A stretch of 63,986 nt of DNA, filler included, from Thelocarpon superellum (Eukaryota), in assembly GCA_026025795.1 (NCBI GenBank). It is 10 parts of 10 records of this genome, joined end to end, with 100 filler letters (N's around TTAATTAATTAA, not from the genome) between each part and the next. Parts side by side here need not be neighbours in the genome. Positions count along the whole stretch, not along the records: positions 1 to 6,372 come from JAPEUG010000677.1; 9 more parts are not named here. One strand, 5' to 3'. Below the pieces are notes generated by a model, which had not been told where the DNA came from, made no database searches, and saw only the letters and a program-made list of their open reading frames with translations. Positions 40 to 2,898 of the stretch are shown here, piece after piece. The position numbers and the translations under genes were made by a program. How positions within the stretch are numbered: position 1 is the stretch's first letter; every line of letters begins with the position of its first letter.

Positions 40-975
40 TCATCGGCCGCCGTTGTCTGGAGGCCCTCCCATCGGGAAGGGCGGTGACCCCGCCGGAAAG
101 CCTCCAGGCGCGCCATTCGGGGGAATAGGGAGCCCTCCCGGCGGAGGCACAAAGCCAGGCGGAGGAAACTGGAAGTTTGGGGGAAGCCCTCCTGGAGGGG
201 GAAAAGGAAGTCCGCCGGGCAATAGTGGAGGAGGCCCGTTCACACCGCCAGGGGGAAAGGGTGGGAAAGGCATGCCACGTCCTCCGGGTGCTGTGTCAAC
301 TGTCAGGGTATCTCATCGTCGCGGGGGTTGAGAGATCCAGATAGCACGTACGAGGTGGTAGCCCGGGCCCGTTAGGACCAGGCATACCAAAAGGCGGGGG
401 AGGGAGGCCACCAGGACCACCTAGACGGGGCAATGTCAGCGAACGCGGAGATCGTGAAGATGTCATGGATCGTACCCGCAAAGGGAAATGGCGGAGGCGG
501 AAAAGGCTGTCCGGGTCCAGGCTGCTGAGCAAGCATGGGGTTCTGGCTTGACTGGCCTTCTGCCGCGTACGAGTTCGTAATGGAGTCGATAACAGACTGA
601 GCCTTTTCATGCCCAATCTCTGTTGCATCGTACGTTAGCTCAACGGACCTGTGACTGATCTCTGCCTGCATCCTCGCCGGCTGCCGACGACGGTGGAGGC
701 GAAGACTCGGCAGGTATTCGACTCACGTTGATAGTAATCTACCACATTCCGTAAATGATTTCGCCCGCTATTGTGCGCTTTGCGGACGCTCATGGAGTCG
801 TGGGTCAAGTAGACATCGCAGTAATCGCCTGCAACGATTAGTGGCAAGATTCAGGACGGGCAAGGGCGCCGGGGGAGTTGCCCTTGGTGACATGGGAAGT
901 CCCTACAGAAGAGTGCTGCGCGGTCAGCAAAGTCACCAAAGGAGAGACAGTTAGGGGAGACTTATATTTCGGCAT
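40..975 (-). CDS. YHC1: U1 snRNP protein C (U1-C), 6 exons including a 6-nt microexon and an AT-AC first intron
   Basis: Spliced product reads [57 protein letters not shown] (matrin-type zinc finger), then a Pro/Gly-rich tail ending DNGGR*. ATG at 975; first exons 975-966, 912-907 and 828-727. Confidence 0.95.
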
Positions 976-1429: not shown

Positions 1430-2898
1430 CTATTCTTTCTTAAATACCTCGGGCTCGAGGCCGCCGTAGATCTGCGAGTTGGATTAGCGCCGCGCGGGCA
1501 CGGCTGCGGAAGATCTCATGCATGACTGACCGTCTCCACCATGATGCCGGTGATCTGATACGGATCGGCATTGCTCGCGGGCCGGCGATCCTCAAAGTAG
1601 CCGCAGCCTTCCTTAGCCACGGCCGCGCCGATGCGGATGCTTGCGCCGCGGTTGGCGATGCCGTAGCTGAAGGTGTCGATGGAACCCGTTTCATGGTTGC
1701 CCGTGAGTCGCAAGGCGTTGTCGGCCCCATAGACGGCGATGTGCTCCTCGTGGCGGGATTCAAGGCGCTTAATGGCCGCCTCGATGTGCTTCATGCCGCC
1801 CGGCTGCCGCATCTCCTCGGACGAGACATTGGTGTGAAGGCCCGCACCGTTCCAGTCACCTGGAATGGGCTTCGGGTGGAAGGAGATCTTGGCCCCAAAC
1901 TCCTCTGCCACACGGTGGAGGAGGAAACGCGCCATCCAGAGCTCGTCGCCCACTGGGCCCACGTCAGTCGGCCTTGGTCACAGAGGCAGACAGGGTAGCG
2001 GGGCCACATACGGCTGATGCCTTCACAAGGTCCCACCTGGAATTCCCATTGGCCCGGCATGACCTCGGCGTTGACACCCGAGATGCGAATGCCGGCGAAC
2101 AAGCATGCCTTGTAGTGGGCCTCGACAATGTCACGGCAGAAGACCTTGCCGGTACCGACACCGCAGTAGTACGGACCCTGGGGCCCCGGGAACCCACCCT
2201 TGGGCCAGCCGTAGACGTTGTCGAGCTCGTCAAATAGCGTGTATTCCTGCTCGAGTCCGAACCAGGTCTTGTGCTTGGCATGGGCCTCCATCAGTCGTGC
2301 GGCGTCGTGTCGGTGGTTGTACTTGTTGGGCGATCCGTCATTGTCCCAGCATTCGGTGAGGACGAGGACGTTGGGAGCACCGCGGAAGGGGTCAGGATAC
2401 ATAGCGACGGGACGGATGTAGACGTCCGAGTTATCGCCGCCAGCCTGGCCCGTAGACGAGCCGTCAAAGTTCCACTCGGGGAGATCTTCGACGCTCTTGG
2501 GCTCCGCCTTGAGCGTCTGCACCATGACTCTTTGTCAGCCTGGTCCAGCGGTCGGCGGGTGCGGTAAGCGTGGGTGGAGGCGGAAGGAAGAAAGAGATCC
2601 AGAAATCAGATAGGAGGGAACAAGATTCAACGCGTTATCGACGCGACGCAGGCCGGACGAACCTTGGTCTTTGAGCGGACTCCGTTGCTGCTATCGATCC
2701 AGATGTACTCCGCCATCACACTCCCCTTCTGGTCGAGGCTCATGAACTTCATGAGCTGCAAAGAGGGTCAGCAAGAGCCGTCATCGATCGAGACGAGCAC
2801 ACTCACGTTCTCGGTATTGGAGACAAACTTGCTTTCGGCCTGCTTATGGTGAGCGAACGCCTCCATCGGAGCTGCCGCCGGAAGACAACACTCACCAT
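1430..2898 (-). CDS. glnA: Glutamine synthetase type II
   Basis: ATG-only first exon (ATG|GTGAGT). Spliced [33 protein letters not shown]...[11 protein letters not shown]...FGLEQEY...[15 protein letters not shown]...[10 protein letters not shown]...RLTGNHET...[14 protein letters not shown]; last exon [13 protein letters not shown] with TAG at 1432-1430. Confidence 0.96.

Follow-up and report, generated by a model that had tools for sequence, protein, structure and literature searches.

In the stretch of DNA analysed here (the window, 63,986 nucleotides (nt) from the fungus Thelocarpon superellum), the minus strand at positions 975-40 carries a gene for U1-C, a component of the small nuclear ribonucleoprotein (snRNP) U1, and the first intron of this gene begins with AT and ends with AC. 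Judged from its reading frame and from orthologous loci, intron 1 is a genuine AT-AC intron whose removal is required for production of the protein. Its two unusual ends change together across fungi, and its signals are those of introns handled by the major (U2-type) spliceosome.

The U1-C gene and its first intron

The gene model, obtained by coordinate-based splicing with a script, contains six exons and five introns.

966-975, minus strand: coding part of exon 1, ATG CCG AAA T, with the ATG at 975-973 and T966 as the last base; ends in phase 1
913-965, minus strand: intron 1, AT-AC, 53 nt, with ATAAGT at 965-960 and AC at 914-913
907-912, minus strand: microexon TCTTCT, 6 nt, supplying the last two bases of the Phe4 codon, the Phe5 codon and the first base of the Cys6 codon
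829-906, minus strand: intron 2, GT-AG, 78 nt, GTAGGG .. CTAAT .. TTGCAG, phase 1 in the Cys6 codon
727-828, minus strand: exon 3, U1-C zinc finger, GC GAT TAC TGC from 828, translated from 826
620-726, minus strand: intron 3, GT-AG, 107 nt, GTGAGT .. GCTAAC .. AACAG
476-619, minus strand: exon 4 of the spliced model, with known homologues
421-475, minus strand: intron 4 of the spliced model, GT-AG, 55 nt
352-420, minus strand: exon 5 of the spliced model, Gly/Pro-rich
291-351, minus strand: intron 5 of the spliced model, GT-AG, 61 nt
40-290, minus strand: exon 6, Pro-rich tail, with the stop TGA at 42-40

The spliced frame is 582 nt long and encodes 193 amino acids, beginning with MPKFFCDYC; its sole stop is the terminal one. 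Exon 3 alone matches the Pfam family zf-U1 (PF06220) with an E value of 2.1e-17 and 63 bits (cut-off of 22) over profile positions 7-38 of 38, in agreement with an earlier note on this DNA that had named the gene as U1-C. One member of the zinc-finger Cys pair is created by the join of the microexon and exon 3, and the other is encoded within exon 3. The 193-residue product aligns with its orthologues residue 1 on residue 1, at 94-97% identity over the first 69-74 residues (94.6% over residues 1-74 of the retrieved protein P0179). Introns 2-5 are ordinary GT-AG introns with CTRAY branch sites.

The layout of intron 1 proposed in the earlier note, including its coordinates, flanking exons and microexon, matches the sequence throughout. 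The 3' end of the intron reads ..GCTGACCGCGCAGCAC, also given as ..TTGCTGACCGCGCAGCAC, and the branch motif CTGAC lies at 927-923, which puts the branch A (position 924) 11 nt ahead of the intron's end. As had been claimed, only removal of the AT-AC intron yields the MPKFFCDYC start, and no good GT donor is present: the sole nearby GT (961-960, GTCTCC) is out of frame with every available AG. Two other readings lead to different products. A CAG acceptor at 918-916, three bases upstream of the AC, would give MPKSLFC, and skipping of the microexon would give MPKCDYC, in frame and two residues short. Shifting the junction by one base in either direction alters the mRNA, and therefore no canonical reading leads to the same product. 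If intron 1 is retained, the first computed stop falls at codon 31, where the earlier note had placed it approximately. Taken together, the open frame, the N-terminal alignment and the co-variation described below suggest that this junction is used in the mRNA.

Co-variation of the intron ends across fungi

Orthologous DNA was collected by a metagenome scan with the zinc-finger exon, which returned 47 loci. In 19 of these, an intron is found at the same phase-1 position, and in all 19 it follows ATGCCNAAAT at the end of exon 1. A further 13 loci have no intron at this position and encode MPK[FY]FC contiguously, in 11 the first intron is another one, basidiomycete-like and placed after codon 2, three are cut off upstream, and one lacks the search pattern. 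Together with the window, the intron-bearing loci make up 20 sequences (12 AT-AC and 8 GT-AG), of which 18 are distinct (11 AT-AC and 7 GT-AG) once the duplicates L028 (identical to L027) and L005 (identical to L004) are dropped. In this comparison, which the earlier note had suggested, AT-AC ends at the same phase-1 position recur in 10 further distinct loci.

No mixed ends, either AT-AG or GT-AC, occur among the 18 distinct intron-1 sequences. The exact 2x2 probability of this co-variation, uncorrected for phylogeny, is 1/31824, and the result bears out the earlier argument that compensating changes at both ends speak against a sequencing error. The AC or AG directly precedes TCTT[CT]T in every case, with the exception of L024, where it precedes ATTTTT (MPKYFC). 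Ten of the 11 distinct AT-AC sequences have the donor ATAAGT and one has ATGAGT, and a CTRAY branch motif lies 10-12 nt from the 3' end in all 11. Invariance in this set is confined to the intron columns for A, T, A, G and T in the donor, C-T-.-A in the branch motif, and AC at the end; the intron interiors are unalignable. Consensus folding of intron 1 with RNAalifold found no structure (0 pairs). The AT-AC introns are 50-56 nt long, with positions +4 to +6 invariant, whereas the GT-AG introns range from 45 to 117 nt. As far as sequence comparison reaches, this pattern shows that purifying selection acts on both intron ends together.

The same coupling is visible in protein models that read through the intron. 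The 11 models starting MPKY[KM] (T/ATAAG or T/ATATG) all need C or AC before the microexon, and the seven starting MPKC[KRE] (T/GT..) all need a G acceptor; none is mixed, with the amino acids fixing the acceptor bases only partly. Among protein matches of at least 93% identity over at least 60 residues, none that is transcript-derived was found for the 11 distinct AT-AC sequences or for L014.

These named models also place the two states among the fungal classes. Read-through of the AT type is found in four orders of Dothideomycetes (Aureobasidium, Rhizodiscina, Saccharata and Clohesyomyces) and in Lecanoromycetes (Lambiella). For a Penicillium sp. model, the AC-type acceptor alone can be deduced, so that the AT-AC state probably extends to Penicillium and the Eurotiales. 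Read-through of the GT type is found in Gaeumannomyces, GT-AG DNA is seen in L013 (100% identical over 87 residues to an annotated Apiospora protein), and an AG- or G-type acceptor alone can be deduced for Glarea, Botrytis and Nemania. On this evidence, GT-AG is the state at the intron-1 position in Leotiomycetes and Sordariomycetes, and the AT-AC state is old and common to Dothideomycetes, Lecanoromycetes, probably Eurotiales and the window's own lineage. The pattern across named taxa is compatible with one ancient switch separating Leotiomycetes and Sordariomycetes from the other classes. Exon 4 of the window is closest to the models of Pycnora praestabilis (92%) and Thelocarpon impressellum (91%), followed by other lichen-forming fungi and Geoglossomycetes. 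For the metagenome loci themselves, the alignable part of the U1-C protein is nearly invariant, exon 4 could not be found in L019, L034 and L037, and summed tblastn scores against named proteins are dominated by the Pro-rich tails and uninformative as to taxon.

Loss of the intron can be seen within one group. L006 and L027 are Pleosporales-like (top match Paraphaeosphaeria, E value of 3e-64) and, among loci sharing the signature NVQAYYE..ISS[ED]QTQ, carry all three introns with an AT-AC intron 1, whereas in L030-L033 no intron is present at any of these three positions, which shows that the AT-AC intron can disappear together with its neighbours.

Splicing and persistence of the AT-AC ends

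Intron 1 is most likely removed by the major spliceosome, and from its donor and branch signals we infer the small nuclear RNAs (snRNAs) on which its splicing would depend. U1 would pair with positions +2 to +6 of ATAAGT, with the A opposite C8 of U1 tolerated, and the CTGAC branch site, which lies 11 nt before the end of the intron, would pair with U2. At the second step, the first and last bases of the intron would make contact as A(+1)/C(-1) and not in the usual non-Watson-Crick combination G(+1)/G(-1); a requirement for this contact would cause the two ends always to change together. An engineered /AT-AC/ intron is spliced in yeast (Parker and Siliciano 1993, as cited in PMC5029451 and PMC6726248), and in a mutated yeast intron AT-AC was the most efficient combination of ends after GT-AG (the same study, as cited in PMC6726248). 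The observed co-variation is what an interaction of the first base with the last base predicts, and thus favors the U2-type assignment.

The simplest account of why such ends persist, and probably the correct one, is that they represent a frozen two-step state in which single reversions are deleterious. Reversion would need two coordinated substitutions in an essential gene, by way of AT-AG or GT-AC intermediates that would be poorly spliced. Most likely, no demonstrated regulatory role is needed to explain the persistence. Several points weigh against this picture. Use of the junction is deduced from conservation, the absence of U11 and U12 snRNAs from this organism is taken from the literature, and the frozen state is argued from the known coupling of A1 and C-1. 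The narrow length range of 50-56 nt and the invariant positions +4 to +6 could equally reflect selection for tuned, limiting splicing. In addition, a purely neutral view has to treat it as a striking coincidence that the intron is located in the gene for a protein that stabilizes mismatched 5' splice sites, and the frozen-state account does not explain how an essential gene first crossed the two-step valley.

The alternative, that the AT-AC ends are kept by selection and not by inertia, is in our judgment unlikely. Selection could act either by coupling U1-C output to U1 snRNP or second-step capacity, or by way of a lock on the microexon. If the first version were true, then in a large part of Pezizomycotina the mRNA of the mismatched-site stabilizer would bear a built-in +1 mismatch; if the second were true, the incompatibility of AT/AC with GT/AG would be a lock that forces inclusion of a 6-nt exon. 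Either version would put terminal-dinucleotide incompatibility to a new use inside a single spliceosome.

In the first version, the mismatched AT donor would make removal of intron 1 rate-limiting and sensitive to the level of U1-C or U1 snRNP, and the retained mRNA would be directed to nonsense-mediated decay, setting the output of the gene. This proposal is doubtful, with evidence on both sides. In silico, retention of intron 1 gives a premature stop not only in the window but also at codons 7-52 in the other 10 distinct AT-AC loci. The tight sizing of the AT-AC introns and their invariant +4 to +6 positions would suit a tuned site, and intron 1 outlives introns 2 and 3 in L011 and intron 2 in L024. 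Mismatched 5' splice sites, among them those with +1C, have been reported to gain further stability from U1-C (Kondo et al. 2015, PMC4383343), and feedback through unproductive isoforms is described for the mRNAs of the minor-spliceosome proteins U11-48K and U11/U12-65K (PMC5473595). The sign of such a loop, however, would be wrong for homeostasis: since U1-C stabilizes mismatched 5' splice sites, a U1-C-dependent site would give positive feedback, with low U1-C cutting productive splicing further. Beyond its core splice signals, the intron holds no conserved element or structure in the 11 AT-AC sequences, either by alignment or by RNAalifold. A device of this kind would also be dispensable, since seven distinct loci have GT-AG ends and 13 of the 47 have no intron here, including the Pleosporales-like L030-L033 set against L006 and L027. 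Finally, in a GT-AG lineage (L013, Apiospora), too, intron 1 has outlasted the others, and its retention over its neighbors is therefore not specific to AT-AC.

The second version concerns the 6-nt exon between the two introns, which is present in nine of the 11 distinct AT-AC sequences and in five of the seven distinct GT-AG sequences. It reads TCTTCT in eight AT-AC and two GT-AG sequences and TCTTTT in one AT-AC and three GT-AG sequences. The microexon is thus not tied to AT-AC ends and is common to several fungal classes. About 17 nt separate the intron 1 branch site from the donor of intron 2, a spacing at which the two introns would probably be removed one after the other. Because an AT donor joins only AC, exon 1 could not skip to the AG acceptor of intron 2, and the AT-AC ends would guard the microexon against skipping that stays in frame (MPKCDYC). 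The skipped form is modelled in four of the 298 retrieved proteins (Hymenoscyphus, Rutstroemia, Geosmithia and Trichoderma harzianum), whose donor type is unread and whose related Leotiomycetes and Sordariomycetes are GT-AG. The presence of the microexon in most of the AT-AC sequences fits this idea, but it is not enriched there relative to the GT-AG sequences, and the two AT-AC sequences in which intron 2 is absent (L011 and L024) have nothing to guard. We consider a guarding role improbable.

The donor of intron 2 is itself biased. It is GTAGG followed by any base in all nine AT-AC sequences that have intron 2 (window 906-901; L006, L008, L010, L012, L019, L022, L025 and L027), and in two of the five GT-AG sequences that bear the microexon. 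This bias may reflect shared ancestry. As a side observation, the microexon and the intron 2 donor together read TCTTCTGTAG followed by G, which resembles a pyrimidine tract with a TAG acceptor.

Removal of intron 1 by the minor (U12-type) spliceosome would be suggested by the AT-AC ends and by the branch-to-3' distance, which at 10-12 nt is short and resembles U12-type spacing. In all 11 AT-AC sequences, however, the donor is ATAAGT or ATGAGT and never ATATCC, and the branch motif is CTRAY and not TCCTTAAC, the U12-type motif. Neither a U12-type donor (/ATATCCTT) nor a TCCTTAAC branch is present in any of the 11, so that the earlier assignment of U2-type signals, made from the ATAAGT donor and CTGAC branch site of the window, stands. 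The GT-AG orthologues have ordinary U2-type donors at the same site. According to PMC5029451, metazoan U2-type AT-AC introns have the very strong consensus /ATAAGT and U12-type introns the consensus /ATATCCTT, and U12 splicing is reported missing in Ascomycota and Pezizomycotina (PMC2846911). A search of the whole 64-kb window (1-63986, both strands) with Rfam found no family at the gathering score, and no tRNA, snRNA or small nucleolar RNA; the missing snRNA match is a weak point against a U12-type intron, the window being part of the genome. A U12-type intron is accordingly very improbable. Equally little weight can be given to an artefact, whether through misread bases at 965 and/or 913, as a pseudogene, or by another start or first exon, since AT and AC recur in 10 more distinct contigs whose introns have otherwise diverged in sequence, which makes an error untenable, the 193-residue frame is open and matched by orthologues from residue 1, and ATGCCNAAAT is kept in all 19 intron-1 loci.

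Known AT-AC introns, annotation and neighboring observations

The closest known counterparts of the U1-C intron are the metazoan U2-type ("type II") AT-AC introns, such as those of human SCN4A and SCN5A, which have the same ends, a /ATAAGT donor, no U12 motifs and, as is the case for U1-C, borders conserved between distant species. These human examples are credited to Wu and Krainer 1997, and the class was surveyed by Sheth et al. 2006 (PMC1557818). That survey reports 24 U2-type AT-AC introns in five species, and it refers to a hypothesis that some fungal xylanase genes contain such introns. Unlike the metazoan examples, the U1-C intron is found in filamentous ascomycetes, a group reported to be without the minor spliceosome, and its snRNA dependence is deduced from sequence. 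It also differs in being located in the U1-C gene itself, in its length of 50-56 nt, and in lying 6 nt upstream of the next intron.

A second parallel is provided by the /AT-AC/ double mutant of yeast (Parker and Siliciano 1993), in which, as cited in PMC5029451 and PMC6726248, replacement of G1 by A is compensated when the last G becomes C, in an organism that has only the major spliceosome. The co-variation in U1-C, with its 18 unmixed sequences, is the evolutionary counterpart of this double mutant. Unlike the reporter intron, the U1-C intron is natural, required and kept across fungal classes. AT-AC junctions that form without a U12 spliceosome, as in U1-C, are also described for Saccharomyces cerevisiae, in nested RPL30 junctions (~1-2% of mRNAs) and in the SUT635 protointron (PMC5029451, PMC6726248). 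Their donors do not resemble ATAAGT and they are minor side products that are not conserved, whereas the U1-C intron is obligatory and conserved; according to PMC6726248, none of the standard yeast introns normally uses AT-AC. In fungi at large, AT-AC introns are a minor class (Frey and Pucker 2020): they account for ~0.03% of introns in fungal annotations (PMC4084796), and single cases are listed for Fusarium graminearum (PMC3577648).

For a regulatory role, the nearest parallels are feedback circuits of spliceosomal snRNP proteins. Cross-regulation from human U1C to U1-70K is one such circuit, and those of U11-48K and U11/U12-65K (PMC5473595) are others. As there, the mRNA of an snRNP protein could be controlled by way of a splice site that its own particle recognizes, with an unproductive isoform as the outcome. 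These circuits, however, use conserved enhancer or alternative-exon elements and are experimentally shown, whereas the U1-C intron has the core signals alone.

No description of an AT-AC intron in a fungal U1-C gene was found in the open-access literature searched, although the junction-table supplements of RNA-seq papers may list it. U2-type AT-AC introns are thus known and rare, and what is new within the searched literature is the U1-C member, the depth of its conservation, the clean co-variation of its ends and its location. The AT-AC intron of U1-C is both natural and obligatory, in organisms whose only spliceosome is reported to be the major one, and in it evolution has replicated the yeast suppression of G1/G-1 by A1/C-1. 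Since the gene is essential and single-copy, one may ask how the two-step valley was crossed, and whether the location of the intron in U1-C, the stabilizer of mismatched 5' splice sites, is coincidence or more. Aureobasidium and other culturable species share the architecture, which makes the regulatory hypotheses directly testable.

A practical consequence concerns annotation. Of the 298 predicted relatives retrieved, only 105 start with MPK[FY][FY]C and 39 at an internal Met (MSVR..), counts that are partly due to intron-blind gene calling on metagenome contigs. The MSVR.. starts include National Center for Biotechnology Information models from Thelocarpon, Pycnora, Schaereria, Xylographa, Candelina, Cladonia and Emmonsia. 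Many public models from lichen-forming and related fungi (P0123, P0126, P0131, P0133, P0134, P0139, P0144, P0184 and others) begin with MSVRKAHN.., with loss of the first two zinc-binding cysteines. The internal-Met models probably result from the inability of gene finders to cross the AT-AC intron and the microexon. Gene finders limited to GT/GC-AG introns mis-annotate U1-C, and many public annotations are broken.

Several further observations concern individual loci and the surroundings of the gene. Directly upstream of U1-C in the window (1516-2534, minus strand) is a glutamine synthetase gene, for which two stop-to-stop frames match Gln-synt_N and Gln-synt_C. These overlap in different frames, and thus one or more introns or frame changes must separate them. 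The same neighbor is not seen beside U1-C in any of the 47 metagenome loci.

In L011, a whole contig of 1045 nt, the AT-AC intron is kept but introns 2 and 3 are missing, both of which occur in its close relatives L012 and L014 (exons ~90% identical as judged by eye). Either two adjacent introns were lost from this genome, or the contig derives from a partly spliced transcript; the idea that it is a cDNA contig retaining the AT-AC intron was found to be unsupported, as L013 has the same one-intron architecture in its genome.

In the 11 basidiomycete-like loci (L035, L036, L038-L043 and L045-L047), the first intron follows ATGCCN, in phase 0 after codon 2, four bases upstream of the intron-1 position of Pezizomycotina. 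It has a GTA, GTG or GTC donor and is followed by AAA CAY TAY TGY. These loci contain an additional intron within the zinc-finger exon.

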